From: Prolixibacteraceae bacterium | GTDB lineage: Bacteria > Bacteroidota > Bacteroidia > Bacteroidales > Prolixibacteraceae | Length of the DNA: 64,000 nucleotides | Assembly (NCBI GenBank): GCA_963662895.1 | Contig: OY759982.1 | Span: 414,884-478,883, forward strand | Reading direction: 5' to 3' | Shown: positions 2,261 to 60,200 of the stretch, piece after piece | Layout of the letters: each line of letters starts with the position of its first letter | How positions within the stretch are numbered: the stretch's first letter is position 1 | Notes under the pieces: generated by a model | What the model saw: the letters and a program-made list of their open reading frames with translations, nothing else | Databases searched by the model: none | What the model was told of the DNA's origin: nothing | Made by a program: the position numbers and the translations under genes

Positions 2261-2290
2261 AAGGACGGTAGAGGCCGTCCTTGTTTTTTT
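2261..2290 (+). terminator. Rho-independent terminator-like hairpin (AAGGACGG-TAGAGG-CCGTCCTT followed by GTTTTTTT)
   Basis: Perfect 8-bp GC-rich stem plus a 7-U tract on the plus strand. No plus-strand gene lies upstream in the window. Confidence 0.4.
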
Positions 2291-2445
2291 AAGCACTGCC
2301 AATTTTTCTTTTCTTTTATATTCTGTTTCGGAATAAACTTCATGTATATCAGTTATTTACAGTCAAAATGTCATTGCCCGGGGTACTGGCAGAAATATTG
2401 AAAGGGACATGCATCAAGATTGTTTAATCTTAAAAATGATGAACT

Positions 2446-6910: not shown

Positions 6911-6958
6911 TTACAATAAAATTTTACTTTAACAGATTTAGCAAAGAAGACCTATTTT

Positions 6959-7100
6959 TCTGATTTTATACCCCAACCCCAAGGGGAGAAATCAGAAGAA
7001 TCCATCCGGTTCCCCCCGGGGATTAGGGTAAAACGGATGGATTTTTCGATTTTGAAGGAAGCTGTCAAAGTAGTCCCTCAGTATAGGGAAAATCCAGTTG
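6959..7100 (+). promoter_or_regulatory. Structured leader element: two stem-loops (6959-6996; 6999-7043 with a CCCCCCGGGG loop) plus a conserved block shared with 58143-58245
   Basis: Inverted repeats TCTGATTT/AAATCAGA and AATCCATCCG/CGGATGGATT. The core CCCCCGGGGNTTAGGGTAAAACGGATGGATTTT is 31/32 identical to the copy upstream of the second sigma gene. Confidence 0.4.
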
Positions 7101-7278
7101 CCAGAAGAATAACAAAAAAAGAGAATTAAATATTTGAGTATGTAACATGTAGAGCTCGTTGTAATAATTTTTCATATCTGACCATGAGATTCGCCCGGCT
7201 TATGGATATTAACTAGTGAATGCAGGATATTGTGAGGAAGATTAGTTAAAAACAAAGGGAATACAGGGAAAGGTTTAT

Positions 7279-8295: not shown

Positions 8296-8405
8296 ATACC
8301 AGATGAAGAAAAGTCCTTAAAAAATAAAAAACAGGCAGACGCTCCACCGCCTACCTGTCACTGTGTTAATTATCAATGTAGTTAATAATTTAACGAGCTA
8401 AATTT

Positions 8406-48100: not shown

Positions 48101-51100
48101 AGCCTCGGTATTGCTGATTGCAATATCACAGGGAAATCTTATACCGGAGGCTTAACAGGAAGAGATAACAATTCTGCCATTACAAACAGTTATGTAGCGG
48201 GAACGGTGTCAGGAACAGATCAGGTTGGCGGGCTAATAGGATATACGGAAAATACAACCATTACCAACAGTTATGCAACAGGAACGGTATCGGGTAATAA
48301 TTATGTTGGCGGTTTGACCGGACAGAACAGGGTTTCTTCAACCATTACCAACTGCTATTCCGCCGCAAATGTATCGGGACATAGTGTGACCGGCGGCCTG
48401 GTGGGGTATAATGTTGCATCATCGGCCATCAGTAATAGTTACGCCACCGGCAGTGTTTTAGGGTCAGGTAGTAAAATAGGCGGCTTGGTGGGGCATAATA
48501 ACTCCTCTACTGTCAGCAACTGCTATTATAACAGCGAAACCAGCGGGCAAAGTAATGGGATTGGCGATGACAACAACAGCCAGTTCGTAACCGGTTTGAC
48601 CACGGCCCAAATGAAACAGCAAAACAGTTTTAGCGGATGGGATTTTGATAATACCTGGGAAATAACCAATGGGAAAACCTTTCCCCGCTTGCGCAATGTG
48701 TACGATTACCCGGTAATTTTGTCAAAAGCAACAATCACAATACAAAAAGGTGTCCTCTACAGTACCATACCGGCAGTACAGATGGATTATGAAATACAGC
48801 TTACCTTAACAGACTATCCTGCGGGTATGGTAGTTCAGGACGATTCCCTTATTATCTGGACACCGGGCAACACAGGTACCTACACCTTTACCGTACGGGT
48901 TGAAGACACCGAAGGGGCAACAACAGAATGCAGTTATACAATTAAAGTCATCTATTTCCCGACGGCAGGTGCCGGGACAAAAGAAAACCCTTTTGAAATA
49001 GCAACACTTGAAGACTTACAATTTTTTTCGGAAAACAGTGACGTCTGGGGCAGCTATTTTATCCAAACCGCCGATATCGATGCCTCTGCAACAACGGAAT
49101 GGAACGGCGGCAGCGGCTTTTCTCCCATCGGGAATAGTACAACAAACTTTACCGGGCATTATAACGGCGCCGGGCATACCATCACCGGTTTGTATATTAA
49201 CAGTCCTTCAACCGATGTCGGACTGTTTGGCTATACCAACGGGGCTGTAATCGACAGCCTCGGTTTGGTAAATTGCGATATTACCGGGGATGATTACGTT
49301 GGCGGCCTTGTGGGGCACAATTCTTCCTCTTCCACGGTGAACAACAGCTACAGTACAGGTAATGTTTCGAGTTCTTCTTTTTGGGGTGCTGGTGGCCTTG
49401 TGGGGTGCAATTCCTCCTCCACGGTGAGCAACTCTTACAGCACAGTCAGCGTTTTGGGAGATGAGGATGTCGGTGGCCTGGTAGGATTTAATAATGATGA
49501 ATCCACGGTGAGCAACAGCTACAGTACTGGTAATGTTTTGGGTTCTTCTTATGTCGGCGGCTTCGTGGGGTACAATGAAGCATCATCGGCCATCTGCAAT
49601 AGTTACTCCACCGGCAGTGTTTCAGGGTCAGGGACTAAAATAGGTGGTCTGGTGGGGGATAACTCTTCAACTGTGAGCAAATGTTTTTTTAACAGCGAAA
49701 CCAGCGGACAGGACAAGGGTATTGGTTACCATTCCGGAGATGTTACAGGGTTGACCACTGCCCAAATGAAACAGCAAAGCAGTTTCAGCGGCTGGGATTT
49801 TGACAATACTTGGGAAATAACCAACGGGAAAACTTTTCCCTGCTTACGCAATGTGTACGATTACCCGGTAATAGTGCAAAAAGCAACAACCACAATACAA
49901 AAGGGAACCCTCTATACCGCTATCCCCGCAGTGCAGATGGATTATGAAATACAGCTTACGTTAACAGATTACCCGGAAGGTATGGCCGTTCAGGACGGTT
50001 CCCTTATTACCTGGACACCGGGCAACACAGGTACATATACCTATACCGTACAGATAAAAGACACGGAAGGGGCAACCACAGGATGCACCTATACAATTGT
50101 TGTTACTATTGCAGGTTCGGGGACAAGCGAAAACCCTTTTGAAATAGCCACGCTTGAAGACTTACAATTTCTTTCGGGAAACAGCAGTTACTGGAACAAA
50201 CATTTCATCCAGACAGCCGATATCGACGCCTCCGCAACGTCAGGCTGGAACGATGGCAGTGGCTTTTCGCCCATTGGTAATAGTACAACGAAATTCACCG
50301 GGCAATATAATGGCGCCGGGCATATTATCAGCAATTTATACATTAACAGTCCTTCAACAGACTATGTCGGGCTGTTTGGCTATACCAACGGGGCCGTAAT
50401 CGACAGCCTTGGTGTTGTCGGTTGTGATGTTAAGGGGCATGAGTATGTAGGTGGTTTAGTGGCATATAATTGTGAGGCTTCGACGGTCAGTAATTGTTAT
50501 GTAATTGGCGAGGTTACCGGCATTTATAGGATTATTGGTGGTTTGATCGGGCGAAATAGGTACAATGCCACGGTAAGTAACTGTTACGCCGCTGTTAGTG
50601 TTTCAGGACCCGAGCGGGTTGGCGGCTTAGTTGGGGACAGTTACGATTTGTCTGTCATAAGGAACTGTTACGCCACCGGTAATGTAATAACTTCAGGGAG
50701 TTACAACGGTGGCTTAATAGGGCTTAATTCCGCTTCTACGGTAAACGCCTGCTACAGTACCGGCAACGTGACTGGCAGTTCATCCATTGGCTGCCTGATC
50801 GGTTACAATTATGCCAATTCTACGGTAACCAATTGTTATTATAATAGCGAAACCGGAGCTATAAGCGAAGGGGTCGGCACAAATCTGGGTACGGATATCG
50901 TAACCGGGCTTACCACCGCCCAAATGCAAACCGCGGGCATCTTTATCAATACCGGCTGGAAATTTGCTGCCGAAGACAGCACGTGGGCGCTCAACGGGAC
51001 CGACAACAACGGCTACCCCTTCCTGCGCTGGCAGGGCAAGCCTGGCAATATCTGGCTCGGAACCAATTCTACAGCCTGGGAAACCGCTGCCAACTGGAGT

Positions 51101-52639
51101 GAGAACCGCGTGCCTGCCGATACCATAATCATTGCAGAAGCAACCAATGCCCCTGAAATCAACTCAACAACCACGGTTGAAGGCCTCACCATTGAAACCA
51201 ATGCAAGCCTTACCGTAAAACCCGCCGCAGGGCTTACCGTTTCGGGCACCTTAACCAACCATGCCGATGCAACCGGGCTGGTACTCCAGTCGGATGCCAC
51301 GGGTACGGCAACGCTTATCAATAGTACGGCAGGCGTACGGGCCACGGTACAGCAATATATTACCGGCACAGGCGGCAATACACCCAACGGACGGGGCTGG
51401 TATATGTCAACGCCAATTTCCGATGCTTCAAGCAATATATTTGGTGATTTTGAAGATTCAGGAAACAGTAACGGGCTGTGGTATTACGTAGAACCGTCAC
51501 AAGGATACGTAGAAATTACAACCAATTCAGAAAGTTTAGATGTAGGTACAGGTTATGTGTTACGTACCGGCACAAACGAAACTGTCGAATTTGCAGGGAC
51601 TCTTAATTCTGACGAACAAACATTAGCTGTAACGCGTACCGGCACCGGACATGCCAAACGCGGTTTTAATCTGGTTGGTAATCCTTATCCTTCGTATTTA
51701 GACTGGGATGCTCTTTATGAAGAGTTCCGTGAATCAATGCGTTCAAGTATCTGGTACCGCACTTCTAACGCGAATAACGATATGGTATTTGATATCTATA
51801 ATGCATCCACACAAACCGGGACCAAAAATAACGGGAAAGGTACAGCGGTAAGCGGATTAATCCCTCCCTGTCAGGCCGTTTGGGTAAAAGTAGATGCTGA
51901 TCCTTATGCTTCTGACGGTACTAATAGCGTTAACCTGTTTTTTACACCATCCATGCAATCGCATGGCGAAAGTGAGAATGGATTGAAACAGGCAATGGTA
52001 AAAGAGCTTATCCGTATGGAAATTGTCAAAGAAAGCAAATCCGACGAAACAGTCATTGTCTTTCATCCCGGGGCTGATCGTACGTTTAACTCCTATGATT
52101 CGGAAAAACAATTTGTAACAGCTCCGGGCTTACCACAACTGTACACGGTAGCAGGCACGAAAAAAACTGCCATTAATGGTCTTTCGCTTTATGATGCTCC
52201 GGATGAAATACCATTAGGTCTGATTTTACCGGAGGCAGGGAACTTCAGTCTTCAAGTTACCGAAATGAGTTGCGGTATCGCATACGAACTTTACGATAAA
52301 ATAACAAGGCTGTCAGAACCTATTTACGAAAGTTATAACTATTCATTTACCAGCGGCGCCGGTGATATTCCCGACAGGTTTGTATTGCAGGTAAAATCGG
52401 GGACAGGAGTAAACGAAAAGGCAGAAACAGAACTAAAAGTTTATAGCACAGGCGATAATCTTATAATAAATACGAATACACCGGGAGAGTTGTTGATATC
52501 CGACATTCTTGGCAGGATTGTGTATTCAGGAAATGTTGAAGAAGGGAAAATTACTTTACCGTTAAACGGAACAAATAAGTTTTACCTCGTAAGGCTGCAA
52601 ACCGAAAGAGAGATAATAACGAGGAAGTTTGTGAAGTAA
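36107..52639 (+). CDS. Giant (5510 aa) secreted GLUG-motif repeat protein with Ig-like modules and a T9SS C-terminal sorting domain
   Basis: Single 16.5-kb ORF. Contains dozens of GGLVG (GLUG) motifs in ~25-aa periodic repeats. Carries ~12 modules that each end in ...KTFPRLRNVYDYP plus an Ig-like domain (TYTFTV.VEDTEG). The C-terminus (LKVYSTGDNLIINTNTPGELLISDILGRIVYSG...YLVRLQTEREIITRKFVK) resembles a T9SS type-A CTD. Confidence 0.85.
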   Translation: MNYNNKPVETIKSPSENRRPALANLGVEQAVTQTPPLRGLGGIILLFLCSIFTLHAQTVTAPSGSGTEGDPYQIAALDNLYWLSQTSSAWGSYFIQTADINASATTGWNSGSGFSPIGNSTTNFTGHYNGAGHTITGLYISRSSTDYVGLFGDTDNAKIDSLGVVNCDISGDDCVGGLVGRQYKSTVNNSYSTGGVSGDTSVGGLVGRHQYTTINNSYSTGSVSGDDCVGGLVGENFWGCTVSSSYSVGSVSGVTNVGGLVGEDNGDCTVSNCYWNTETSGQISSTGGIGLTTAQMKQQSSFSNWDFDANWEITNGKTFPRLRDVYDYPMLLPKPTAIAQKGALYTDTPAVPMDYEIQLTLKDYPTGMTVQNGSIITWTPESAGTYTFTVQVEDTEGKITECTYTIIVIAFPGAGAGTKENPFEIATLEDLQFLSENSDGLWNGNFYFIQTAGIDASATTGWNEGSGFSPIGNSTTNFTGHYNGAGHTITGLYISRSSTDYVGLFGYTNNAGIDSLGIINCNVTGNAYAGGLVGNCYYSEVNNCYATGTVTGAGSVSGAGSKAGGLAGCSSSSEISNSYASVTVTGVGDYVGGLVGHNYEATESNCYATGSVTGEGNYTGGLVGRSTDSEVNYCYSTGLVTGSGSSVGGLVGDNYPYLGTSTVNNCYWDTQTSGQSTGDGGTGLTTAQMKQQNNFSGWDFDNTWEITNGKTFPRLRNVYDYPVILPIATVAQRGTLYTDTIQIVSMDYEIQSVTLADNPEGMLLQNGSVITWTAPDNIGTCTFTVRAEDTEGATVEYSYTIKVIISGEGTNGNPYEIATLEDLKFLSENSAYWGSYFIQTADIDASATTEWNGGSGFSPIGNSTTNFTGHYNGAGHIISNLYINRPSTDNIGLFGYTNGAEIDSLGIADCNITGKSYTGGLTGRDNNSAITNSYVAGTVSGTDQVGGLIGYTENTTITNSYATGTVSGNNYVGGLTGQNRVSSTITNCYSAANVSGHSVTGGLVGYNVASSAISNSYATGSVLGSGSKIGGLVGHNNSSTVSNCYYNSETSGQSNGIGDDNNSQFVTGLTTAQMKQQNSFSGWDFDNTWEITNGKTFPRLRNVYDYPVILSKATITIQKGVLYSTIPAVQMDYEIQLTLTDYPAGMVVQDDSLIIWTPGNTGTYTFTVRVEDTEGATTECSYTIKVIYFPTAGAGTKENPFEIATLEDLQFLSENSDDFWNGNFYFIQTAGIDASATTGWNGGSGFSPIGNSTTNFTGHYNGAGHTITGLYINSPSTDVGLFGYTNGAVIDSLGIANCDITGDSGNKNVGGLVGYTLSSEVNNCYVTGYVTGAGISTGGLTGCNKSSEMNNCYTAVIVTGANEYVGGLVGHNSNATENNCYATGNVTGSDGYTGGLVGRSTDSEVNNCYATGQVTGSGSSVGGLVGNNYNFSGASTINSSYYNSETSGQSNGIGGDNNSQSVTGLTTAEMKQQNNFSGWDFDNTWEITNGKTFPRLRNVYDYPMLLPKPTAIAQKGALYTDTPAVPMDYEIQLTLKDYPTGMTVQNGSIITWTPESAGTYTFTVQVEDTEGAKTAECTYTIIVIAFPGAGAGTKENPFEIATLEDLQFLSENSDGFWNGNFYFIQTAGIDASATTGWNEGSGFSPIGNSTTNFTGHYNGAGHTITGLYINRPSTNNIGLFGYTNGAVIDSLGIANCDITGDSGNKNVGGLVGYTLSSEVNNCYVTGYVTGAGISTGGLTGCNKSSEMNNCYTAVIVTGANEYVGGLVGHNSNATENNCYATGNVTGSDGYTGGLVGRSTDSEVNNCYATGQVTGSGSSVGGLVGNNYNFSGVSTINSSYYNSETSGQSNGIGGDNNSQSVTGLTTAEMKQQNSFSNWDFDNTWEITNGKTFPRLRNVYDYPVILSKAPVTIQKGALYTGTIPAVPMDYEIQLILTDSPEGMVVQDDSLIIWTPGNTGTYTFTVRVEDTEGAKTAECTYTIKVIYFPTAGAGTKENPFEIATLEDLQFLSENSDIWDKYFIQTADINASATTGWNSGSGFSPIGNSTTNFTGHYNGAGYIISNLYINRPSTNRIGLFGYTSGAVIDSLGIANCDITGGDYHVGGLVGYNYSSQVNNCYVTGSISGSGYYVGGLLGTNTASSAVGYCYSTGSVRVSHRYVGGLIGYNNFSTVNYCYSAGSITGASAGGLLGYNSGTVINCYYNSETSGQSNGIGDDNNSQFVTGLTIAQMKQQSSFSGWDFTTTWAIRKDSTYAALQGINNAPFAFSDIVEVSVGDVLLLDTVLLANDCDYETGQAALIYKIISATSDNCTINGNIYTFNNEAAIGSSETIMYHAGELLAPGDTLWGNVARAVLNITTPSGNGTENDPYQIATLNHLGWLSQTNSAWNKYFIQTADIDASETTEWDTGSGFSPIGNQTTNFTGQYNGKGHTITGLYINRPSTDYTGLFGHTSNGTVIDSLGIANCDITGNSRVGGLVGLSYTSCTISNCYVTGSVTGSVNYVGGLAGYNYEATVSNSHAICSVTGSSYVGGLVGHNYPSSTISYSYATGSVTGSGEKTGGLAGCNKSSEINNCYATGSVAGAHDYVGGLVGHNYEATESNCYATGSVTGEGSYTGGLVGRSTDSRVNYCYSTGLVTGSGSSVGGLVGDNYPYLGTSTVSSCYWDTQTSGQSSSDGGTGLTTAQMKQQAQLVGFDFTTTWAIREDNTYAAMQGLNNAPIAFADSIVVYGGVLQLDTMLTNDYDYETGQSSLVYQIISAASNNGSINGNVFIFSSSALIGSTDTIVYRAGEILAPGDTLWGNTAQAVLYYRPYEITTLEDLKLLSENSVYWDKCFIQTTDIDASATTGWNSGSGFSPIGNSTTNFTGHYNGAGHTITGLYINSPSTDVGLFGYTNGAVIDSLGIANCDITGDSGNKNVGGLVGYTLSSEVNNCYVTGYVTGAGISTGGLTGCNKSSEMNNCYTAVIVTGANEYVGGLVGHNSNATENNCYATGNVTGSDGYTGGLVGRSTDSEVNNCYATGQVTGSGSSVGGLVGNNYNFSGVSTINSSYYNSETSGQSNGIGGDNNSQSVTGLTTAEMKQQNSFSNWDFDNTWEITNGKTFPRLRNVYDYPVILSKAPVTIQKGALYTGTIPAVPMDYEIQLILTDSPEGMAVQDGSLITWTPGNTGTYTYTVQIKDTEGATTGCTYTIVVTIAGSGTSENPYEIATLEDLKFLSENSAYWGSYFIQAADIDASATTGWNFGSGFSPIGNDTTNFTGHYNGAGYIISNLYINRPSTNRIGLFGYTSGAVIDSLGIANCDITGGDYHVGGLAGYNYSSQVNNCYVTGNVSGKTYVGGLLGTNTASSAVGNCYSTCNVTGSNHSGGLAGYNNSSAVNYCYSTGSITGSNAGGLLGYNSGTVSNCYYNSETSGQSSGIGSDNNSQSVTGLTTIQMKQQNSFSNWDFDAIWEITNGKTFPRLRNVYDYPVVLPKKPATVQTGSLYTDTISAIPMDYEIQLTLTDYPAGMAVQDGSLITWTPGNTGTYTYTVQIKDTEGATTGCTYTIVVTIAGSGTSENPYEIATLEDLKFLSENSAYWGSYFIQTANIDASATAGWNFGSGFSPIGNDTTNFTGHYNGAGYIISNLYINRPSTNRIGLFGYTSGAVIDSLGIANCDITGGDYYVGGLAGYNYSSQVNNCYVTGNVSGKTYVGGLLGTNTASSAVGNCYSTCNVTGSNHSGGLAGYNNSSAVNYCYSTGSITGSNAGGLLGYNSGTVSNCYYNSETSGQSNGIGDDNNSQFVTGLTTAQMKQQNSFSGWDFDNTWEITNGKTFPRLRNVYDYPVILSKATITIQKGVLYSTIPAVQMDYEIQLTLTDYPAGMVVQDDSLIIWTPGNTGTYTFTVRVEDTEGATTECSYTIKVIYFPTAGAGTKENPFEIATLEDLQFFSENSDVWGSYFIQTADIDASATTEWNGGSGFSPIGNSTTNFTGHYNGAGHIISNLYINRPSTDNIGLFGYTNGAEIDSLGIADCNITGKSYTGGLTGRDNNSAITNSYVAGTVSGTDQVGGLIGYTENTTITNSYATGTVSGNNYVGGLTGQNRVSSTITNCYSAANVSGHSVTGGLVGYNVASSAISNSYATGSVLGSGSKIGGLVGHNNSSTVSNCYYNSETSGQSNGIGDDNNSQFVTGLTTAQMKQQNSFSGWDFDNTWEITNGKTFPRLRNVYDYPVILSKATITIQKGVLYSTIPAVQMDYEIQLTLTDYPAGMVVQDDSLIIWTPGNTGTYTFTVRVEDTEGATTECSYTIKVIYFPTAGAGTKENPFEIATLEDLQFFSENSDVWGSYFIQTADIDASATTEWNGGSGFSPIGNSTTNFTGHYNGAGHTITGLYINSPSTDVGLFGYTNGAVIDSLGLVNCDITGDDYVGGLVGHNSSSSTVNNSYSTGNVSSSSFWGAGGLVGCNSSSTVSNSYSTVSVLGDEDVGGLVGFNNDESTVSNSYSTGNVLGSSYVGGFVGYNEASSAICNSYSTGSVSGSGTKIGGLVGDNSSTVSKCFFNSETSGQDKGIGYHSGDVTGLTTAQMKQQSSFSGWDFDNTWEITNGKTFPCLRNVYDYPVIVQKATTTIQKGTLYTAIPAVQMDYEIQLTLTDYPEGMAVQDGSLITWTPGNTGTYTYTVQIKDTEGATTGCTYTIVVTIAGSGTSENPFEIATLEDLQFLSGNSSYWNKHFIQTADIDASATSGWNDGSGFSPIGNSTTKFTGQYNGAGHIISNLYINSPSTDYVGLFGYTNGAVIDSLGVVGCDVKGHEYVGGLVAYNCEASTVSNCYVIGEVTGIYRIIGGLIGRNRYNATVSNCYAAVSVSGPERVGGLVGDSYDLSVIRNCYATGNVITSGSYNGGLIGLNSASTVNACYSTGNVTGSSSIGCLIGYNYANSTVTNCYYNSETGAISEGVGTNLGTDIVTGLTTAQMQTAGIFINTGWKFAAEDSTWALNGTDNNGYPFLRWQGKPGNIWLGTNSTAWETAANWSENRVPADTIIIAEATNAPEINSTTTVEGLTIETNASLTVKPAAGLTVSGTLTNHADATGLVLQSDATGTATLINSTAGVRATVQQYITGTGGNTPNGRGWYMSTPISDASSNIFGDFEDSGNSNGLWYYVEPSQGYVEITTNSESLDVGTGYVLRTGTNETVEFAGTLNSDEQTLAVTRTGTGHAKRGFNLVGNPYPSYLDWDALYEEFRESMRSSIWYRTSNANNDMVFDIYNASTQTGTKNNGKGTAVSGLIPPCQAVWVKVDADPYASDGTNSVNLFFTPSMQSHGESENGLKQAMVKELIRMEIVKESKSDETVIVFHPGADRTFNSYDSEKQFVTAPGLPQLYTVAGTKKTAINGLSLYDAPDEIPLGLILPEAGNFSLQVTEMSCGIAYELYDKITRLSEPIYESYNYSFTSGAGDIPDRFVLQVKSGTGVNEKAETELKVYSTGDNLIINTNTPGELLISDILGRIVYSGNVEEGKITLPLNGTNKFYLVRLQTEREIITRKFVK

Positions 52640-52729: not shown

Positions 52730-52906
52730 ATGAAGACAAAAGAAAAAAGAACATATCAAAACCCCGAAATCACTAAAGTCGAAATCGACAACCAGATATC
52801 AATGGTAATGATGTCGGATACAAATCCGTATGGCGACCCGTGGTCGTTGGCTGAAGAACGGCAAGAAAACAAAGCAAATAATCCGTATAAAATTTCTCAG
52901 GGGTAA
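52730..52906 (+). CDS. Candidate 58-aa RiPP precursor peptide (MKTKEKRTYQNPEITKVEIDNQISMVMMSDTNPYGDPWSLAEERQENKANNPYKISQG)
   Basis: Short hydrophilic ORF, below the track's 60-aa cut-off, lying immediately upstream and co-directional with the PqqD-like and kinase genes. Contains three N-P-[E/Y] motifs. Confidence 0.35.
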   Translation: MKTKEKRTYQNPEITKVEIDNQISMVMMSDTNPYGDPWSLAEERQENKANNPYKISQG

Positions 52907-53035
52907 CACAAACATTATACATGTAAAATACACAGGTTGATTTTTGAATAAGATTCGATTAATTGTCAGAAGTCGGAAGTCTGAAGTTCGTTAAAAAATC
53001 ATCTTTTGCCGTCGTTAATTATTTTTTGTTTTATT

Positions 53036-53317
53036 ATGATTTTAAAAAGAATAGCTCAAAAGAAAAATTTATTTGCACAAAGTACCGTTGGAAAGGAAAC
53101 CATCTTAGTGCCTTTACGGGATTCAGTGGCAAATATGAACGAAATGGTTACGCTTAACGAACCGGGTTCTTTTATTTGGGATAAAATAACAATATCATCA
53201 ACCATTGAATCTCTAACAAAAGAAGTGGTGGATAATTTTGAAGTTGACGAACAAACCGCCAAAACCGACATAAACAGCTTCGTGCAAAAATTATATCAAT
53301 TTACAGAAACGGTTTAA
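53036..53317 (+). CDS. PqqD-family peptide chaperone (RiPP recognition element)
   Basis: ILVPLRD...NEMVTLNEPGSFIWDKI...SLTKEVVDNFEVDEQTAKTDINSFVQKL matches the PqqD/RRE pattern. Length ~93 aa from ATG 53036. Confidence 0.6.
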   Translation: MILKRIAQKKNLFAQSTVGKETILVPLRDSVANMNEMVTLNEPGSFIWDKITISSTIESLTKEVVDNFEVDEQTAKTDINSFVQKLYQFTETV

Positions 53318-53318
53318 T

Positions 53319-54182
53319 ATGTCTGGATCTAACACTACTGCTGTAAAAACCGGGGAGTTTATATTTAAGATTCAATCTGAATTCCAAATTGCTTTCGATA
53401 TCGGTTATTTTTCATTTGTAACAACTGATTTTGATGTTCCTGATGTTACACTGCAAGTAGAACAACTATCAAAAGAACATATTCGACCTGTTGTTTTTAT
53501 TTTTGAGGCTGTTGAGCAAGGTATCCCTTTATGGAAGGTAAGCAGAACAACAAATGGTTATCGACTGTTCATTTATAATCAACTTCAAAAAGGAGTAATA
53601 CAGGCAGTAATTGATGTTCCTCACGGATCAAACATCTGGCAGGTATATTGCCTTCCTGATGAGCAGGGTAATGTTGAGCCAATGGCATATCCCGCCGGAG
53701 CGTTGTTGTTATACATGCTGGCAATACGTAACAATGCTTTTATGCAACACGCATCGGCAGTTATAAGCAATGGCAATGCTTTTGTTTTTTCAGGATTTTC
53801 AGGAATTGGAAAGAGCACAATGGTTTCGATATGGCAGGAAACGGGCTATACTGTTATAAACGATGACCGAATTCTTATTCGTCAAAACAACAAAGGCTTT
53901 ACGGTTTACAATACGCCAATGTTCTACGACGATAAGCCCAAACAAGCACCTTTATCGGCTATTTTTTTATTACAACAGAGTTGTGAGAATTATATAAAAA
54001 GACTAAAAGGGGTGACTGCAATAACAAATTTTATGCGTTTTTCTATTCAGCATGCATACGATAAACATTTTTTAAATGCTCATTTGCAGTTAGTTCAGGA
54101 TATTTATAAAACAGTGCCTATATTTGAATTGGGCTTTAAACCCGATGTATCAGTTATTGATTTTATTCATACTAACTTGTAA
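53319..54182 (+). CDS. HPr kinase/phosphorylase C-domain-like protein (RiPP/lasso-peptide kinase-like)
   Basis: P-loop FSGFSGIGKST in the C-terminal half. ~287 aa, similar in size to lasso-peptide Ser-kinases. Confidence 0.6.
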   Translation: MSGSNTTAVKTGEFIFKIQSEFQIAFDIGYFSFVTTDFDVPDVTLQVEQLSKEHIRPVVFIFEAVEQGIPLWKVSRTTNGYRLFIYNQLQKGVIQAVIDVPHGSNIWQVYCLPDEQGNVEPMAYPAGALLLYMLAIRNNAFMQHASAVISNGNAFVFSGFSGIGKSTMVSIWQETGYTVINDDRILIRQNNKGFTVYNTPMFYDDKPKQAPLSAIFLLQQSCENYIKRLKGVTAITNFMRFSIQHAYDKHFLNAHLQLVQDIYKTVPIFELGFKPDVSVIDFIHTNL

Positions 54183-56374
54183 TGTTTGATATTGTTTCTG
54201 TATCGGCACAAATTCTAAGAAAAACCTTTGCTACAGCAACGACTATTGAAGTTAAAGCAGGTGGTTTTAGTATGTTTCCTACAATACGCGAAGGTTCAGT
54301 GTTGATAGTGCAACAAACAAAATCATCCGATATTTCAAAAGGCGATATTGTTTTGCGAGAAGAGGCTGGAAGGGTAATTGCCCACAGGGTAGTTTCCACT
54401 AAAAAAGGAATTGTTTCCCGTGGCGATAATTGTCGTAACCCGGATGTTGTAACTTCTCCCGAAAATATAATTGGCAAAATAACAGCGGTTAAAAGAAACA
54501 AAAAAGAAAAAAGCACAAATAAGTTTTCTTTCAGAATTATCTGTTTTTTTATACTGTATATTCCGTTTATTACACGATTAATTTTTAGGGTAATGCATTT
54601 TTTTATTAACCGGGGGAAACAGTTGATTGAAGTACATTGCCATATAAAACAACTTACTGTATCATGTCGGTTTCAATTTTGTTTAAACATATTTTTATCT
54701 GTATTGTCGGGATTAATACCATTGGCAATTTTGTACCTTTTCAAACTGCTTATCGATGCTTTGCATACTCAGGACAGGACACAAATAATAGTACTGTTTT
54801 CGATCGTAATTGCATTATTTGGAATTCAGTTATTGCTACAACCATTTAATGCTTTTATAAAGGAGAAATTATCGCAGGGCATACAGCATTATTCTCATAA
54901 ATTATTACAGCAGCAGTGTAATACAATTGCATTTTCGTATTTCGAGAATACACAAAATCAAGATGAACTTTATCGTGCAACCGTTGAGGCTGCAGGCCGT
55001 CCGGTCCGTATGGTACAGGCCTGCATTTCGTTTTTGCAAACATTTGTTGCCGGAATTGTTATTGTCGGGATACTGGCATGGCAAAATATTTACCTTTTTA
55101 TTGTTTTATGTTTGTTGTTGTTTCCCTGGTTTATATTCAAAATCCGGAATGCAAGGGTATTATATCGGTTTTACAAAGTTTACAATGTGAAAGAGCGTGA
55201 ATACTATTATTTTCACAGGGTACTCACATCTGCATTATTCTTAAAAGAAATAAAAATTTTTAATTCATTCCGGTTCTTTTCTGATAAATATACAAACGCG
55301 TATTTCGGATTTTATAGTCGGAAGAATGCTATTCTGAAAAAGCATTTGCTTATCGAGATTGCTCTTTTAATTTCTCTGATTGTCGTATTGGTCGTTGTCT
55401 TTTATTTGTTGGTATCCCGATTTTTGCAAGGTACAATAAGTGTTGGGACAATTGTCCTTATCCTTTTACTTTTTCAACGTGGTTTTTCGGTGATAAAATC
55501 GTTCTTTCAGGCAATTACAACTATTGTTGATAACCGGTCATACTTGTTCGATTTTATTTTATTTCTGAAAAAGAAAACAGAGAAATACGAGAGTAATGCT
55601 ATACTTTCGTTACAAAATTGCATTTCGTTACAAAACGTGAGTTTTACTTATCCGTCGAGTTTACGTAATGCGATAACCAATGTGTCGTTCGATATCCCGA
55701 AACAAAAAACAATAGCTTTGGTTGGAGAAAACGGTTCGGGAAAGACTACGCTTGTAAAGTTACTGTGTGGTTTGTACAATCCATGCGAAGGCAAAATTTT
55801 GTTCGATAATATGGAAGTGAGTCCGCAAAATCTACCGATAATACGAAATTCGGTTACAACCGTTTTTCAGGATTACGCACTTTATAATATGCCTGTTTTC
55901 GAAAATATTTCATTCGACAAAAAGGCGGATGCAGAGCGTGTTTTTGCTGCCGGGAAGCAGTCAGGTATTGATGAGACTGTTTCGTGTTTGCCCGATTCTT
56001 ATAAAACAATGTTAGGTAACTATTTTGTGAAAGGTGAACAATTGAGTATTGGCGAGTGGCAAAAAATTGCAATTTCGAGGGCATTTTACCGAAACAAAGA
56101 TATTTTGATATTCGATGAACCAACCAGTGCTTTAGATGTAAAATCGGAACGGTTGCTTATCGGGACTTTCAAAGAACTGGCTAAGCATAAAACCTGTATT
56201 ATCGTAAGCCATCGCCTATCAACAATTGATTGGGTTGATGAAATTGTTGTAATGCACCGGGGACAAGTTGTCGAAAAAGGAAGCCATGCCGGGTTGCTTG
56301 CTTTAAAAGGTCATTACTATGAAATGTATAAACAGTCGAAGCCTGTTAGTTCGTTTTTCCTGAAAGATAGCTGA
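54182..56374 (+). CDS. Fusion: N-terminal S24/S26 (signal-peptidase/LexA-like) Ser-Lys peptidase domain + ABC exporter (6-TM domain + NBD)
   Basis: GGFSMFPTIREGSVLIV...GDIVL matches the S26 SPase-I GDSMxPTLxxGD motif. TM region follows. Walker A GENGSGKTT, signature LSIGEWQKIAISRA, Walker B ILIFDEPTSALD. Confidence 0.7.
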   Translation: MFDIVSVSAQILRKTFATATTIEVKAGGFSMFPTIREGSVLIVQQTKSSDISKGDIVLREEAGRVIAHRVVSTKKGIVSRGDNCRNPDVVTSPENIIGKITAVKRNKKEKSTNKFSFRIICFFILYIPFITRLIFRVMHFFINRGKQLIEVHCHIKQLTVSCRFQFCLNIFLSVLSGLIPLAILYLFKLLIDALHTQDRTQIIVLFSIVIALFGIQLLLQPFNAFIKEKLSQGIQHYSHKLLQQQCNTIAFSYFENTQNQDELYRATVEAAGRPVRMVQACISFLQTFVAGIVIVGILAWQNIYLFIVLCLLLFPWFIFKIRNARVLYRFYKVYNVKEREYYYFHRVLTSALFLKEIKIFNSFRFFSDKYTNAYFGFYSRKNAILKKHLLIEIALLISLIVVLVVVFYLLVSRFLQGTISVGTIVLILLLFQRGFSVIKSFFQAITTIVDNRSYLFDFILFLKKKTEKYESNAILSLQNCISLQNVSFTYPSSLRNAITNVSFDIPKQKTIALVGENGSGKTTLVKLLCGLYNPCEGKILFDNMEVSPQNLPIIRNSVTTVFQDYALYNMPVFENISFDKKADAERVFAAGKQSGIDETVSCLPDSYKTMLGNYFVKGEQLSIGEWQKIAISRAFYRNKDILIFDEPTSALDVKSERLLIGTFKELAKHKTCIIVSHRLSTIDWVDEIVVMHRGQVVEKGSHAGLLALKGHYYEMYKQSKPVSSFFLKDS

Positions 56375-57518
56375 ACAAACTTCGTATTCCGTCGCCGAAC
56401 CGAACAAAATAGTATAAAAAGTAGAGCTTTTTATTTTTTATTTTATATCGGTAAACCATGAAACTTTTTGACGGGAAGAAATTGTGAAGCAAAAATTTTA
56501 ATTTGTTTTTCGTCCCTTTTACCCGTTTTAGTCCTGCAATGTTAGCGTTCTTTATGTGAATAGCAAGATGTTCGTTTGGTTCAATGGTATGTAAAAAAAA
56601 CGATTCGTAATAATCATCTCTATATTTATTTAATTGGTTTGTAACATCATCGGGAACAGGTGCTTTTAGGTAGGTATGAGATATAAGGATATGAGGGAAT
56701 ACATATTTTTTAATAGAATGTTCTGAGCAAAAAGAAATTAACTTTTCCCAGTTAAACGAATCGGCTTTTTTCTGTAAAAACCAGGCAATATCAATATATC
56801 CGATAAAATGCATTTGGGCATTTTGCACATGTTCGTCAATGTGTAAACACAGGCTGACAATAAATAACTCGGGATAGAATACCCTGGCATGAACATTTTT
56901 ATATCTTACACTTTGTAGATCTTCGAAAAAACACGATTGAGGAACAGAATACCCATTCCATTCATTAAATATTTTTTTGTGTAATTCAATGCCAACCCCC
57001 TGATTATTGCACATCATTGGAATGTGCTTAATATCCTGATGTTGTAGAATGAAATCAGTCCTTTCTGTTCCTTTAAACCGGAATCCTAATGATAGAATCT
57101 TTTGGGCAGCCGGTTCTATGTTATTTTCTTCCAATAACACATCAATATCGCTCAATTGCCGTAATGAAATATTTTCGTAGATGTGATGTGCCAGGTAAAT
57201 CCCTTTTAACAAGATAGGTGAAATTGATCCGGAATTTAAATGTGCCCCAATTTTCTCAAATTCATTATATATCAGTGTGTTTTTCCGGAGATTTTTAAAA
57301 TAGAATTTCTGCATTTCCCGTAAAATATCGTCGGGCACAAAAGAATTGAATTGCAACGACTGAGTTCTATTGTAAATTAGAGGTGTTGTTCGGGTTTTTA
57401 TGCTTATCTCCAATAATTTGTTCCAGTCAATATTCTTAGTGAGTTCAATAGTATTATTTGACAAATATTGTGGACGAATAGAGGTGAAAAAAAATTGTGT
57501 TGTTTTTGATACGTTCAT
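56346..57518 (-). CDS. Nucleotidyltransferase-fold protein (PF14907-like, the family seen in Firmicutes lasso clusters)
   Basis: LKGIYLAHHIY...LRQLSDIDVLLEEN matches the polymerase-beta-like NTase hG[GS]...D.D signature. Convergent with and overlapping the ABC gene's 3' end. Confidence 0.5.
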   Translation of the reverse strand: MNVSKTTQFFFTSIRPQYLSNNTIELTKNIDWNKLLEISIKTRTTPLIYNRTQSLQFNSFVPDDILREMQKFYFKNLRKNTLIYNEFEKIGAHLNSGSISPILLKGIYLAHHIYENISLRQLSDIDVLLEENNIEPAAQKILSLGFRFKGTERTDFILQHQDIKHIPMMCNNQGVGIELHKKIFNEWNGYSVPQSCFFEDLQSVRYKNVHARVFYPELFIVSLCLHIDEHVQNAQMHFIGYIDIAWFLQKKADSFNWEKLISFCSEHSIKKYVFPHILISHTYLKAPVPDDVTNQLNKYRDDYYESFFLHTIEPNEHLAIHIKNANIAGLKRVKGTKNKLKFLLHNFFPSKSFMVYRYKIKNKKLYFLYYFVRFGDGIRSLFSYLSGKTN

Positions 57519-58142: not shown

Positions 58143-58245
58143 ATAATCGATCCTGTTTCCCCCGGGGCTTAGGGTAAAACGGATGGATTTTCCGATTTGG
58201 AGTGAATCTATCAAAGCAGAACCAGGATTGTAGGGAAATAATTCT
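58143..58245 (+). promoter_or_regulatory. Second copy of the conserved PUL leader element (see 6959-7100)
   Basis: CCCCCGGGGCTTAGGGTAAAACGGATGGATTTTCCGATTT... lies directly upstream of the ECF sigma gene. Confidence 0.4.
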
Positions 58246-58282
58246 TTTGTATTTTTGGCAATCCTTTTTATGTAACTTTATT

Positions 58283-58876
58283 ATGAGTGGACTGAAAAAG
58301 CATATTATTGATGAGGCCCTGGTAAAACGGTTTGCTAATGGGGACATGAAAGCTTTTGATGCCATTTATTCTGTTTTCAACAAAAAGTTACAGAATTTTA
58401 TTTTTACATTGGTCAAAACCAAAACAGATACAGAAGATTTGGTTCATGAAGTATTTGTAAAAGTATGGGAAAACAGAAATAAATTAAGAAATTATACTTC
58501 CTTTGATACATATCTGTTTACTATCGCATATAATTCTACTGTTAGTTTACTGAGGAAAAAGGCTAAAGATGCTCATTATATTGAGTATGTCAAATCAGTG
58601 CAGATCGAAATAGACGAACCTGATTTTATCGAAGGAGGCAATAGTGAAGAAGTTAATGAGAAAATAAACCTGCTGATAGAACAAATGCCTCCACGACAAC
58701 GTGAAGTATTTAAAATGAGGTATTTTCAGGATTATTCTTATAAAGAAATAGCTGAAGCTCTGGGAATATCTGTTAATACCGTTGAAAACCATATTGTTAA
58801 AGCTCATAAATATCTTAAAGAAAACGTAGGAAAAGCCTATTTGTCAATTCTTTTTTTTATTCATCTTTTTTTATAA
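58283..58876 (+). CDS. ECF-type RNA polymerase sigma-70 factor (the track ORF begins at an upstream GTG 58202)
   Basis: Region 2 DLVHEVFVKVWENR. Region 4 YKEIAEALGISVNTVENHIVKA. Confidence 0.85.
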   Translation: MSGLKKHIIDEALVKRFANGDMKAFDAIYSVFNKKLQNFIFTLVKTKTDTEDLVHEVFVKVWENRNKLRNYTSFDTYLFTIAYNSTVSLLRKKAKDAHYIEYVKSVQIEIDEPDFIEGGNSEEVNEKINLLIEQMPPRQREVFKMRYFQDYSYKEIAEALGISVNTVENHIVKAHKYLKENVGKAYLSILFFIHLFL

Positions 58877-59009
58877 AAAATGAATCAGGAATAGTGGTTT
58901 TTTGATTTTTTGCGTCTAACTTATAGTTTGATCAAGTTTTTATCATTTCAAATGCCTGATATCTGTATGGATTTTGAGGTGGGTAAACAGGCTGGAAAAT
59001 AAACGAAAA

Positions 59010-60086
59010 ATGGACAAAAAACTTCTAAATAAGTTTATCGCCAATCAATGTACATCGAATGAGATTGATACAGTTTTCAGTTGGGTCCAAAAATTTCAGG
59101 ACAAATTTTTATTTAAAAGCTATTGGGATGATATTAAAATTACGGATATTTCTGATGACGAACTTGTTCAAAGGCGGCTGGACCGGATTCACCATACCAT
59201 CAATTTAAATCAATCGGAACGATTGGGAAGAGGTAAAGTTCGTTTTTTAAGCAAGAGGAAATCCTCTTTTGTTCAATTCATTTCAAGGGCTGCAGCTATC
59301 CTTTTGTTCCCGCTTTTAACTTTATTTGTTTACATCCGGTTTTTTCAGCCTGAATTATATTCTATGCTCACTGTGTCGCAGGAATATGAGATCGTTTCAC
59401 CTCCTGGTTCCCGTACCCAACTGAAATTATCTGATGGAACAAAAGTTTGGTTAAATCATGGCAGCAGAATGATTTATCCTCAGAAGTTTACAGAGGATAC
59501 GAGGACTGTTGAGCTAACCGGGGAAGCATATTTTGAAGTTGCCCCGGATAAAACAAAACCGTTTGTTGTTGAGGCATCCGGCATGGCTGTAAAAGCTGTT
59601 GGTACTGCATTTAATGTAAAGGCTTATCCTGATGATCCGAATATTGAAACGACATTGGAATCGGGTAAAGTAATTATTTTGAGAAATGCATCCGGTATGA
59701 AAACAGAAGTATGTAACATGACCCCGGGACAGCATTTTATTTTTAACACTATTTCCAGTAAATATTCGCTTAAAACCGAAGACCCTTCTAAATATGTTTC
59801 CTGGAGAGAAGGAAAATTAATATTTCAGGATGATCATCTGGACCAGGTGGCCAATCGGTTGTCCCGCTGGTATAACGTGAAGGTAATTCTTAAAGATTCC
59901 GGGCTTAGTTCGCTTACTTACACTGCTACGTTTGTGGATGAAACACTTGATCAGATCCTTGAAATGCTTGAAATTGTGACCCCAATCTCATATACTATTT
60001 CTGACAGGCAGAAATTGCCTGATGGAACATTTTCAGAAAAAGAAATTTTAATCTATAAAAAAGAAAGAAATGAAAAACTAAATTAA
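59010..60086 (+). CDS. FecR-family anti-sigma factor (FecR + DUF4974); the track ORF begins at an upstream TTG 58974
   Basis: Single TM. LSDGTKVWLNHGSRMIYP...GEAYFEV FecR core. C-terminal RLSRWYNVKVILKD motif. Paralogous to 7279-8295. Confidence 0.85.
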   Translation: MDKKLLNKFIANQCTSNEIDTVFSWVQKFQDKFLFKSYWDDIKITDISDDELVQRRLDRIHHTINLNQSERLGRGKVRFLSKRKSSFVQFISRAAAILLFPLLTLFVYIRFFQPELYSMLTVSQEYEIVSPPGSRTQLKLSDGTKVWLNHGSRMIYPQKFTEDTRTVELTGEAYFEVAPDKTKPFVVEASGMAVKAVGTAFNVKAYPDDPNIETTLESGKVIILRNASGMKTEVCNMTPGQHFIFNTISSKYSLKTEDPSKYVSWREGKLIFQDDHLDQVANRLSRWYNVKVILKDSGLSSLTYTATFVDETLDQILEMLEIVTPISYTISDRQKLPDGTFSEKEILIYKKERNEKLN

Positions 60087-60200
60087 TTATTAAAGAATTG
60101 CTTCTGAAAAAACAGCAGGAAAATGCGCCACATCTCCCTGCCGGTTTAATTTAAAAAAACTCTTTTAAAGAGCTATTTCTAACAATAACAAAACAAAAGT

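Follow-up and report, generated by a model that had tools for sequence, protein, structure and literature searches.

The window, by which we mean the whole stretch of 64,000 nucleotides of Prolixibacteraceae DNA analysed here, contains a very large gene for a cargo protein of the type IX secretion system (T9SS), a small open reading frame and a gene cassette. The cargo protein has 5510 aa (ORF 36107-52639, plus strand) and ends in a conserved module of ~525 aa with a T9SS C-terminal sorting domain (51053..52639, plus strand). It is followed by a precursor peptide of 58 aa (52730..52906, plus strand) and then by a PqqD-family RiPP recognition element (RRE), a leader-binding chaperone (53006..53317, plus strand; PF05402, E 9.6e-13), which among NCBIfam models comes nearest to lasso_PqqD_Bac (E 7.6e-8, under the cut-off of that model). 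The next gene encodes a ScmC/HprK-related P-loop protein, a putative peptide kinase (53319..54182, plus strand), that matches TIGR04355 HprK_rel_B (E 1.7e-10) and TIGR04249 ScmC (E 1.2e-5), both below cut-off; its orthologues match PF27840 (ScmC), the P-loop SGFSGIGKST is present in 10/10 aligned homologues, and an INDDR motif is kept or nearly kept in most of them (LSDER in locus L004, INADR in L013). The stop codon of this gene overlaps the ATG of the exporter gene by 1 nt (TAATG). At its 3′ end the exporter gene overlaps by 29 nt with a convergent gene for an NTP_transf_5 nucleotidyltransferase-fold protein of the PsmN family (56346..57518, minus strand; PF14907, E 1.6e-44), in which the DxD motif SDIDVLL is conserved. 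A consensus scan around the cassette returned 31 promoter-like sites against 25.1 +/- 4.8 in shuffled sequence and three terminator-like sites against 4.1, an excess in neither case.

The exporter gene encodes a protein of 730 aa. An earlier note on this DNA had described it as an ABC exporter in which a domain of S24/S26 fold replaces the usual C39 peptidase, and the domain matches bear this out (PF00717, PF00664 and PF00005, with no match to PF03412). The type I transmembrane domain comprises six long helices (residues 145-462; 54614..55567, plus strand; PF00664) and is modelled by AF2 with a pLDDT that lies at about 74-95 in blocks of ten residues, most of them exceeding 85. The nucleotide-binding domain (residues 480-730; 55619..56374, plus strand; PF00005, E 3.8e-30) has a Walker A motif GENGSGKT and a Walker B motif at D645-E646. 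Foldseek matches the ABC part to MsbA, Atm1, PCAT1 and Sav1866, and its closest relatives in sequence are cassette-linked ABC proteins (320 bits for L012, 305 for P0004 of locus L095 and 304 for L003).

Related loci show where the additional domain comes from. A search with a five-sequence alignment gave five genome loci, the species representatives searched excluding the window's own genome. The conserved and widespread cassette consists of PqqD, the HprK-like ScmC, an S26B-like peptidase of ~150 aa, an ABC exporter and NTP_transf_5. In 7/8 sampled loci a stand-alone peptidase of ~150 aa directly follows ScmC, with PqqD upstream; the ABC exporter comes immediately after it in 5/8 and NTP_transf_5 is present in 5/8. 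Locus L095, found through its ABC protein and outside the eight-locus sample, has the identical order PqqD-ScmC-peptidase-ABC. The exporter gene of the window is thus a fusion of two neighbouring cassette genes, those for the peptidase and the ABC exporter. Such a two-gene origin, and the linkage of the peptide to a T9SS cargo protein described below, are points beyond the earlier note.

The precursor peptide and the neighbouring cargo gene

The small ORF, taken in the earlier note to be the adjacent precursor, indeed belongs to a family of conserved peptides whose leader is of the RRE type, and the HMM of this leader matches in the window with E 3.5e-19; none of the NCBIfam models describes these precursor peptides. 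Its leader reads K-R-x-Y9-x-x-P12-x-I...I-D-N-Q-I-S-M-V-M-M-S29 and the segment after S29 is DTNPYGDPWSLAEERQENKANNPYKISQG. Among 46 aligned members the Tyr is present in 45/46 and the Pro in 46/46, with I/V/L at +5, and conservation continues through D(+11) in 45/46, I(+14) in 43/46, S(+15) in 43/46 and S(+20) in 42/45. The C-terminal end carries an (N/D)(N/D)P(F/Y)K motif, and a GG-type motif is found in none of the 46. Even the 'core' segment is conserved among family members, as would not usually be expected of an antimicrobial RiPP. The cassette is accompanied by a small ORF with this leader in the window and in L001, L002, L003, L022, L024, L027, L035, L041 and L055, and Firmicutes cassettes have Y-x-x-P-x-phi peptides in which the leader ends phi-x-G/S and is followed by Cys-rich cores.

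The family leader ends I-S-L-x-[LM]-x-S, and the conserved boundary [LM]-x-S is followed by a Pro-rich segment. The candidate cleavage site conserved in the family is phi-x-Ser, or MMS29/D30 in the window (codons at 52814-52819, plus strand). With Met/Leu at -3 and Ser at -1 it bears only a loose likeness to SPase sites, though the peptidase could plausibly have a SPase-like preference for small residues at -1. One orthologue, that in L001, has Pro at +1 of the candidate site; Pro in this position blocks classical SPase I. SLA/EE, previously put forward as a candidate site, is not conserved and falls in a segment missing from the homologous precursors, and we have abandoned it.

Given the peptide family to which the adjacent ORF belongs and its RRE-type leader, the best reading of the 730-aa protein is that of a bifunctional leader peptidase and exporter in a RiPP-like system, its S26B domain tethered by a helix to the ABC exporter, and we regard this as probable with moderate confidence. 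The precursor would be bound by the PqqD-family RRE through its Y-x-x-P-x-I ... I-S-M-V-M-M-S leader and phosphorylated by ScmC, and NTP_transf_5 might then add a further group onto the phosphate, by analogy with PsmK and PsmN. The leader would be removed by the peptidase domain, most likely behind the conserved [LM]-x-Ser (MMS29/D30), and the homodimeric type I ABC exporter, to which this domain would be tethered through an amphipathic helix, would pump the core over the inner membrane at the expense of ATP. We infer catalysis by the N-domain, its substrate and its cleavage site in this scheme, together with the order of the maturation steps and the nature of the peptide modifications. Several observations weigh against the reading: the conserved core, the loose SPase likeness of the candidate site and the Pro at +1 in L001, the ScmC and PqqD matches below cut-off, and, as described below, the many loci with peptide but without nearby cassette, the low-confidence placement of the N-domain and the hydrophobic linker of the window protein.

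A cargo protein with the ~525-aa module is the usual neighbour upstream of the peptide gene. Homologues of its ~525-aa module occur in L001 (51% identity, E 1e-145), L002 (two copies), L012, L010 and L011, and at least 474 relatives are present in metagenomes; apart from a weak match to Por_Secre_tail, no Pfam or NCBIfam family covers the module. A peptide family gene lies directly downstream of a module-bearing T9SS cargo gene in 35/72 metagenome loci, as it does in the window, L001, L002 (twice) and L010. So tight a pairing suggests that the maturation of ribosomal peptides is connected with type IX secretion in a way that has gone unrecognised. Many loci with module and peptide have no cassette within 10 kb. 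It is possible, if tentative, that the cassette is the processing and export machinery of an undescribed, Bacteroidota-wide RiPP class in which one cassette per genome serves several dispersed precursors, each encoded immediately after a module cargo, and the modified peptide, once exported, acts with its cognate cargo in the periplasm. The peptide might, for example, be bound by the ~525-aa module and carried by the T9SS to the cell surface, or it might be required for maturation or attachment of the cargo. If this were true, no RiPP-like system before it would have been coupled to type IX secretion or have had a leader peptidase of signal-peptidase fold.

In a rival reading no free peptide is secreted, and the cassette and the S26B-ABC protein would instead act on a glycan or on the neighbouring T9SS cargo, or in concert with that cargo. 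The exporter might for instance move a peptide in modified form, or a group linked to a lipid or nucleotide, that serves in maturing, anchoring or regulating the cargo, and the peptidase might process something other than the leader of the small ORF. In keeping with this, the peptide gene so often follows a cargo gene, the cargo gene of L012 sits between PqqD and ScmC, Firmicutes cassettes lie inside polysaccharide loci (Wzz, CpsB, Bac_transf, glycosyltransferases), and one member of the peptidase family is fused to Poly_export/SLBB. We nevertheless consider it rather unlikely. A PqqD RRE coupled with a conserved Y-x-x-P-x-phi leader is the hallmark of peptide maturation. The cargo proteins carry signal peptides of the ordinary Sec kind, and their size is far beyond what a type I ABC exporter could handle. 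L003, from a hydrothermal-vent metagenome, has the peptide together with the cassette, yet its 11.3 kb contain no copy of the cargo module.

Fold, membrane side and active site of the peptidase domain

The N-terminal domain (residues 1-113; 54182..54520, plus strand) is an S26B (Sec11/SipW-like) peptidase domain. TIGR02228, the profile for ER- and archaeal-type signal peptidase I including SipW, matches residues 1-145 with 54.1 bits, above its cut-off of 51.85, and the S26 fold expected from the earlier reading of the sequence thus holds under a profile-HMM check. The same profile matches 36/36 scanned family members at E <= 0.01 (best E 3.2e-22), and the top PDB sequence matches of the domain are SEC11A and SEC11C, whose SM.P and HRV motifs align with the Ser and His boxes of the family. 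The domain also has the beta-barrel fold by which MEROPS S24 (LexA/UmuD) is defined. A word-indexed search with the N-domain alone gave no homologues, and those discussed here came from an exhaustive HMMER scan. In the full-length AF2 model the N-domain is placed at low confidence (pLDDT 50-70); domain and full-length protein were modelled separately because an alignment that mixed full-length, ABC-only and stand-alone peptidase sequences had misaligned all 61 short sequences.

Between the two halves lies a linker helix (residues 115-143; 54524..54610, plus strand; 115-149 in AF2), which AF2 predicts as a single unbroken helix of 29-35 residues and whose counterpart in the stand-alone peptidases is their C-terminal helix, which is basic and amphipathic. 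Across the family this helix has medians of 1.11 for KD19, 0.50 for hydrophobic moment, 5 for K+R and 0 for D+E, and the flank upstream of it is net positive. The linker of the window protein is itself hydrophobic (KD19 2.1) and could in principle span the membrane. If helix 115-143 were a seventh transmembrane helix, the N-domain would be periplasmic and would work like a signal peptidase on the exported peptide or the T9SS cargo after translocation, much as SipW processes TasA. The length and continuity of the helix would suit this, as would the fact that the best curated match is to archaeal/SipW-type signal peptidase I. Such a topology is nonetheless improbable, since an N-terminal anchor or signal peptide, that is, a hydrophobic segment before the catalytic Ser, is lacking in 151/152 family members, and the Lys/Arg cluster KRNKKEKSTNK just before the helix opposes translocation according to the positive-inside rule. 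The helix is, moreover, amphipathic in the family and non-hydrophobic in five fused homologues (L022, L024, L027, L035 and L041), and the peptidase domain is also found fused to NTP_transf_5, a second fusion type, and to SAM-, acetyl-CoA- and NTP-dependent enzymes, which are cytoplasmic and need cofactors. Judged from these sequence features the peptidase domain is most likely cytoplasmic, on the inner side of the membrane. Without an N-terminal anchor and with a domain that probably faces the cytoplasm, the protein would work in the manner of a PCAT with different chemistry.

The predicted catalytic set is of the Sec11/SipW (S26B) type and consists of Ser30 (54269-54271, putative nucleophile), His68 (54383-54385, putative base), and Asp82 (54425-54427) and Asp88 (54443-54445) as putative supporting residues, all on the plus strand. 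In 152 aligned family representatives of 25-40% identity, Ser30 is present in 150/152, Met31 in 152/152, Pro33 in 152/152, His68 in 152/152, Arg69 in 151/152, Gly81 in 148/152, Asp82 in 150/152 and Asp88 in 138/152, and the Ser/His/Asp/Asp set is kept in 11/11 peptidase-ABC fused proteins. The Asp pair of the G-D-N-x4-D motif presumably corresponds to Asp103/Asp109 of Sec11. That Ser30, His68, Arg69, Asp82 and Asp88 are nearly invariant at such low identity argues for catalysis. The Ser-Lys dyad that had been claimed for the domain, and that marks MEROPS S24, did not survive the alignment, for no Lys is conserved in the 152 representatives: position 104, where the AVKRNKK segment of the earlier note has its supposed Lys, is E in 51, K in 27 and Q in 12 of them and may be K, T, V, Q, N, I, L or E in the 11 fused proteins, while 119/152 have Arg at position 105. 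A non-catalytic leader dock in the style of the C39-like domain of HlyB, or a self-cleaving Ser-Lys regulatory module resembling LexA, is hardly credible given the near-invariant catalytic residues and the missing dyad Lys; nor did the N-domain reveal an internal Ala-Gly loop at which a LexA-like protein would cleave itself.

Comparison with known systems

To our knowledge, all characterised bifunctional peptidase/ABC exporters combine a C39 cysteine peptidase with double-glycine leaders. If a Ser/His domain of signal-peptidase fold does the job of C39, it would represent a second independent way to couple leader removal with export, and an S26B leader peptidase, differing in specificity, could be a new tool for traceless leader removal. 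The fusion further serves as a Rosetta stone: anonymous 'S24/S26 family peptidase' genes are found in thousands of genomes (4328 representatives at E <= 1e-3), and it ties them to an ABC exporter and to PqqD, ScmC and NTP_transf_5, giving the whole cassette a testable function. Our literature search found no paper on the PqqD/ScmC/peptidase/ABC/NTP_transf_5 cassette or on the SCM cassette, nothing on S24/S26 leader peptidases in RiPPs and nothing joining PqqD with type IX secretion. S24/S26 enzymes are likewise absent from the catalogue of leader proteases in a 2023 RiPP review.

Among the systems closest to the protein are the PCATs or AMS exporters (PCAT1, ComA, LahT, CylB), which share with it an N-terminal, here probably cytoplasmic, peptidase on a homodimeric type I ABC exporter and a small leader-bearing precursor encoded nearby. 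PCAT1 is one of the structures that the ABC part matches best. Their peptidase, however, is a papain-like C39 cysteine peptidase, whereas that of the window protein is an S26B-like serine peptidase of clan SF, and with an N-domain of PF00717 and no C39 match the protein is not itself a PCAT. The leader here is also without a double-glycine (GG/GA/GS) motif and is probably recognised by a separate PqqD RRE, and an amphipathic helix joins the two halves. With Sec11/SPC18, archaeal SPase I and SipW the N-domain shares the G-x-S-M-x-P, H-R-V and G-D-x5-D motifs. Those S26B signal peptidases act on Sec signal peptides, and their N-terminal transmembrane anchor holds the active site at the trans face of the membrane. 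Here, by contrast, a distinct minimal domain of ~110 aa has no such anchor, is probably cytoplasmic and is followed by a basic amphipathic helix, and its genomic ties are to PqqD, ScmC and NTP_transf_5 instead of Sec substrates.

The gene content resembles that of kinase-containing lasso peptide clusters (paeninodin with PadeK, pseudomycoidin with PsmK and PsmN), which also have a PqqD RRE, an HprK-like kinase, an NTP_transf-family protein, an ABC exporter and a Y-x-x-P-x-(L/I) leader motif. PsmK phosphorylates the C-terminal Ser of the pseudomycoidin peptide, and without PsmN the phosphorylated forms do not gain a further 162 Da (hexose) (PMC6993621). This is a precedent for a ribosomal peptide as the target of an HprK-like kinase paired with an NTP_transf-family protein. 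Unlike these clusters, the cassette has neither a lasso cyclase (the Asn-synthetase-like C protein) nor a transglutaminase-type B2 protease beside it, as seen from gene lists and Pfam matches in the window, L001, L002 and L003, and it relies on an S26B-like enzyme as its leader peptidase. With no cyclase present, we do not expect a lasso peptide as the product.

The pairing of a ScmC-type HprK-like protein with a PqqD-like protein is also known from SynChlorMet (SCM) cassettes, which comprise ScmC, ScmD and the radical SAM enzymes ScmE/ScmF. The scores here are nevertheless far lower (24.8 bits against a cut-off of 125 for ScmC TIGR04249, 20.4 against 100 for ScmD TIGR04248), and radical SAM genes are absent from the window, its cassette included; a radical SAM enzyme is present in the Firmicutes and L004 cassettes, with ScmE as the best match (E 2.7e-23). 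Finally, SodX, which matures Ni-superoxide dismutase, resembles the N-domain in being a soluble cytoplasmic S26-family peptidase that cuts an N-terminal extension, but differs in substrate and context and is not fused to a transporter. Its model TIGR02754 is weakly matched by 26/36 family members, well below the cut-off.

Domain architecture and predicted catalytic residues of S26B-ABC

The S26B-ABC gene (54182-56374, + strand) is an uninterrupted open reading frame of 730 aa, the ATG of which overlaps by one base the TAA of the gene before it (TAATG); its start can therefore be assigned well, and its translation is probably coupled to that of the preceding gene. Pfam places Peptidase_S24 (PF00717) at residues 18-100 (26.5 bits; gathering score 23.3), ABC_membrane at 167-432 and ABC_tran at 499-649, and finds in the protein no C39 domain, the hallmark of bacteriocin-type peptidase/ABC exporters. 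The architecture proposed in the earlier note, an N-terminal S24/S26-type domain joined to an ABC exporter lacking C39, is thus real, and the S26/LexA-type fold it proposed for that domain was borne out. Scanned alone, residues 1-145 match NCBIfam TIGR02228 (signal peptidase I, archaeal/ER type) with 54.1 bits, above the cut-off of 51.85; the SipW model ranks next, with the models for bacterial SPase I, NiSOD protease and LexA scoring far lower. The best PDB sequences by family profile are human SEC11C (E 8.7e-10) and SEC11A (E 1.2e-8), the alignment spanning S-M-x-P, H-R-V and G-D-N...D. An AlphaFold2 model of residues 1-150 (85 homologues; mean pLDDT 92.9, pTM 0.81) has a small beta-barrel followed by a single long helix (115-149), and is matched by Foldseek to UmuD', LexA, lambda cI, SpsB and SEC11A. 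Taken together, these matches of sequence and of predicted structure make the fold assignment secure.

The chemistry originally proposed, a Ser-Lys dyad with its lysine in AVKRNKK (K104), did not survive comparison with homologues. An exhaustive HMMER scan yielded 4328 cluster representatives that match the N-domain at E <= 1e-3, of which the best 152 were aligned to count conservation. Met31, Pro33 and His68 are invariant; Arg69 is kept in 151, Ser30 and Asp82 in 150 each, Gly28 and Gly81 in 148 each, and Asp88 in 138. The K104 position, by comparison, has Glu in 51 of the 152, Lys in 27 and Gln in 12, and is followed by Arg in 119. In 11 proteins that share the fusion this position varies (K, T, V, Q, N, I, L or E), whereas Ser30, His68, Asp82 and Asp88 are unchanged in all. 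Judged from this pattern, the predicted catalytic set is Ser/His/Asp/Asp, of the Sec11/SipW type (MEROPS S26B) by comparison with the numbered residues of Sec11, and no Ser-Lys dyad.

Gene fusion within a conserved cassette

Full-length relatives are rare: a search of 5.8 billion clustered proteins turned up only two others, P0002 (71% identity), from a MAG labelled uncultured Draconibacterium sp., and P0003 (40%). The exhaustive scan added three fused proteins (P0121, P0159 and P0240) and metagenome loci a further five (L022, L024, L027, L035 and L041). Most of the peptidase family consists of stand-alone proteins of ~150 aa, which sources, where they name them, call 'signal peptidase I' or 'S24/S26 family peptidase'. 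In seven of eight such members looked up, the gene directly follows a ScmC/HprK-like gene with PqqD upstream; a gene for a ~600-aa ABC exporter lies immediately 3' in five of the eight, and NTP_transf_5 is present in five. The closest unfused relative of the window ABC half, P0004, belongs to a PqqD-ScmC-157-aa peptidase-ABC cassette in which the peptidase and ABC genes overlap by 4 nt, and it scores 305 bits against that half, with the cassette ABC proteins of L012 and L003 at 320 and 304 bits. Because unfused peptidase and ABC genes are neighbours and the ABC proteins closest to the window ABC half are themselves cassette-linked, the window gene is best read as two genes, side by side in a conserved cassette, that have become one. 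A second, independent fusion links cassette members in other lineages, where the S26B-like domain is joined to NTP_transf_5 (P0167 and P0233).

In the window the cassette comprises the precursor peptide gene (52730-52906), PqqD (53006-53317), the ScmC-like gene (53319-54182), S26B-ABC and NTP_transf_5 (56346-57518, - strand). The cassette is uncharacterised and widespread, and a literature search found no description of it. Membership of the peptidase family does not always imply this setting: P0326 (L005 7001-7474, Marinilabiliaceae; 23 contigs), a stand-alone member located between an Omp85-family gene and purA, has no cassette genes nearby. Some cassettes carry a radical SAM enzyme (best match ScmE) together with Cys-rich precursors: that of L006 (Ruminiclostridium herbifermentans CP061336) and those of L014 and L013, which resemble it gene for gene. 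All three lie within capsule/exopolysaccharide loci that also encode Wzz, CpsB, Bac_transf and several glycosyltransferases.

Membrane side of the peptidase domain and likeness to PCATs

True signal peptidases have a transmembrane anchor just before the catalytic Ser. A hydrophobic segment at this position is absent in 151 of the 152 family members, and the window domain, although S26B-like by descent, therefore fails the topological hallmark of these enzymes. The helix that follows the domain has in this family a median best 19-residue hydropathy of 1.11, only 19% reaching 1.6, and a high hydrophobic moment (median 0.50); it contains a median of five Lys/Arg, lacks acidic residues and is preceded by a net positive stretch. 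That of the window protein is more hydrophobic (2.1); the linker of the five metagenomic fusions is plainly no membrane span. The same domain and helix are fused elsewhere to GNAT, SAM methyltransferase and NTP_transf_5 domains, all of which need cytoplasmic cofactors, and type I ABC exporter cores have their N-terminus in the cytoplasm. The absence of an N-terminal anchor, these fusions and the orientation of the ABC core indicate that the peptidase domain is most likely cytoplasmic, held at the membrane surface like the C39 domain in PCATs. The full-length AlphaFold2 model is confident in the ABC part (pLDDT about 74-95 per 10-residue block, mostly >85) but not in the N-domain (50-70). Poly_export/SLBB polysaccharide export protein is a further partner of the S26B-like domain and helix, alongside NTP_transf_5, GNAT acetyltransferase and SAM methyltransferase, among P0167, P0233, P0141, P0198 and P0128.

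PCATs are the nearest known systems functionally, in that peptidase, ABC exporter and leader-bearing peptide are shared, but two of their three defining features, the C39 domain and the double-glycine leader, are missing. S26B-ABC is predicted to unite peptidase and ABC exporter in one bifunctional protein, with another fold and another chemistry in its peptidase, and we consider it moderately probable that it acts as a PCAT-like leader-peptidase/exporter; this, like every function discussed here, we infer from homology, conservation, gene fusion and synteny. No S24/S26 enzyme is among the leader proteases that a 2023 RiPP review covers.

Precursor peptides, their proposed modification and the T9SS cargo module

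Orthologues of the 58-aa precursor ORF precede PqqD or ScmC in three related loci (L001, L002 and L003), and a small HMM built on the N-terminal part they share gathered 46 peptides. Their leader reads K/R-x-Y-x-x-P-x-I-E-x-I-x-L-D-N-E-I-S-L-x-[LM]-x-S, with conservation, numbered from Tyr (45/46), of Pro(+3) (46/46), Asp(+11) (45/46), Ile(+14) and Ser(+15) (43/46 each) and Ser(+20) (42/45). A Pro-rich stretch (PPxGPxE) follows, and the C-terminus bears a (N/D)(N/D)-P-(F/Y)-K motif (NNPYKISQG in the window). In lasso peptides, leaders that begin Y-x-x-P-x-(I/L) are the kind that PqqD-like RREs recognise. Where the cassette includes a radical SAM gene (L004, L006, L013 and L014), the peptides begin alike and have a phi-x-G/S boundary ahead of Cys-rich cores. 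This boundary and the conserved [LM]-x-Ser make M27-M28-S29|D30 the most plausible cleavage site in the window; its -1 residue is small and its -3 residue aliphatic, so that it would loosely follow the signal-peptidase rule. The site named previously, SLA|EE, is discarded because it falls in a segment absent from the other family peptides.

The ScmC-like protein has an HprK-type P-loop (SGFSGIGKST) kept in all 10 homologues aligned, and after it an Asp pair (INDDR) kept in most of them (LSDER in L004, INADR in L013); the NTP_transf_5 protein keeps its DxD motif. In the pseudomycoidin lasso pathway, the HprK-like PsmK phosphorylates the C-terminal Ser, and PsmN, of the NTP-transferase family, is needed for addition of 162 Da (hexose) to phosphorylated forms (PMC6993621). 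By analogy, the peptide might be phosphorylated and then receive a phosphate-linked decoration. Kinase-containing lasso clusters and the SCM cassette have similar accessory genes, but the enzymes defining either are absent from the window cassette.

The gene just upstream of the peptide (36107-52639, + strand) encodes a T9SS cargo protein of 5510 aa, in which near-identical units of ~390 aa with GLUG-like GGLVG repeats follow one another many times; repeats this long and this alike easily collapse or expand in an assembly. The GC content of this ORF is 0.47-0.50, compared with 0.35-0.37 in the cassette beside it. The last ~525 aa of the protein (51053-52636) form a conserved module, for which no Pfam or NCBIfam family was found, with the motifs GFNLIGNPYPS, IWYRT, IPPMQAVWV, DEAIIVF, YDSEKxF, PQLYT and AINGL. 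The module precedes the T9SS sorting domain in otherwise unrelated giant cargo proteins and recurs beside the cassette or peptidase gene: in L001 (6967-8517; 51% identity, N-terminal part Laminin_G_3), L002 (two copies, 2652-4304 and 6932-8440; 35% and 31%, LRR_5 and Glug), L010 (11308-12900; 25%, Gly_rich_2), L011 (2213-3307; 25%, Beta_helix) and L012 (4398-5837; 28%), where the gene lies between PqqD and ScmC and has a normal Sec signal peptide and no N-terminal part. A metagenome scan gave at least 474 module relatives, and in 35 of the 72 retrieved loci with at least 400 bp downstream a family peptide starts no more than 600 bp downstream of the module gene on the same strand; L002 has two such peptides and L027 three. 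Several loci with 10-kb flanks, such as L016, have module and peptide but no cassette, whereas the five metagenomic loci with fusions have the full cassette, always with a fused S26B-ABC gene. The simplest reading is that several cargo and peptide pairs per genome are served by one cassette.

The main rival reading, which we consider unlikely, is that the cassette serves the T9SS cargo or a glycan and does not make a free peptide. A lasso peptide would not be the expected product, as neither a lasso cyclase nor a B2 protease adjoins the cassette. An ABC exporter that has no partner in the outer membrane would release the peptide into the periplasm, through which T9SS cargo passes, and a physical partnership of peptide and cargo is, as speculation, conceivable.

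Across L016-L094, peptides of the form YxxPxIExIxLDNEISLxLxS...NNDP(F/Y)K lie downstream of a module gene, often without a maturation cassette within 10 kb. The L004 cassette (radical SAM gene, Cys/Gly-rich precursor) is flanked not by a T9SS-module protein but by two large Peptidase_C25 (gingipain-like) proteins (1-3695 and 7476-10757). Directly downstream of the window cassette lie a Bacteroidota-type ECF sigma factor (58202-58876, + strand), matched to family libraries, and two + strand ORFs that by appearance encode a FecR-type anti-sigma factor (58974-60086, 370 aa) and a SusC-type TonB-dependent receptor (60201-63605, 1134 aa). The neighbours in L001 differ from these genes (58202-63605), and nothing ties the sigma factor, FecR- and SusC-type genes to the cassette system.
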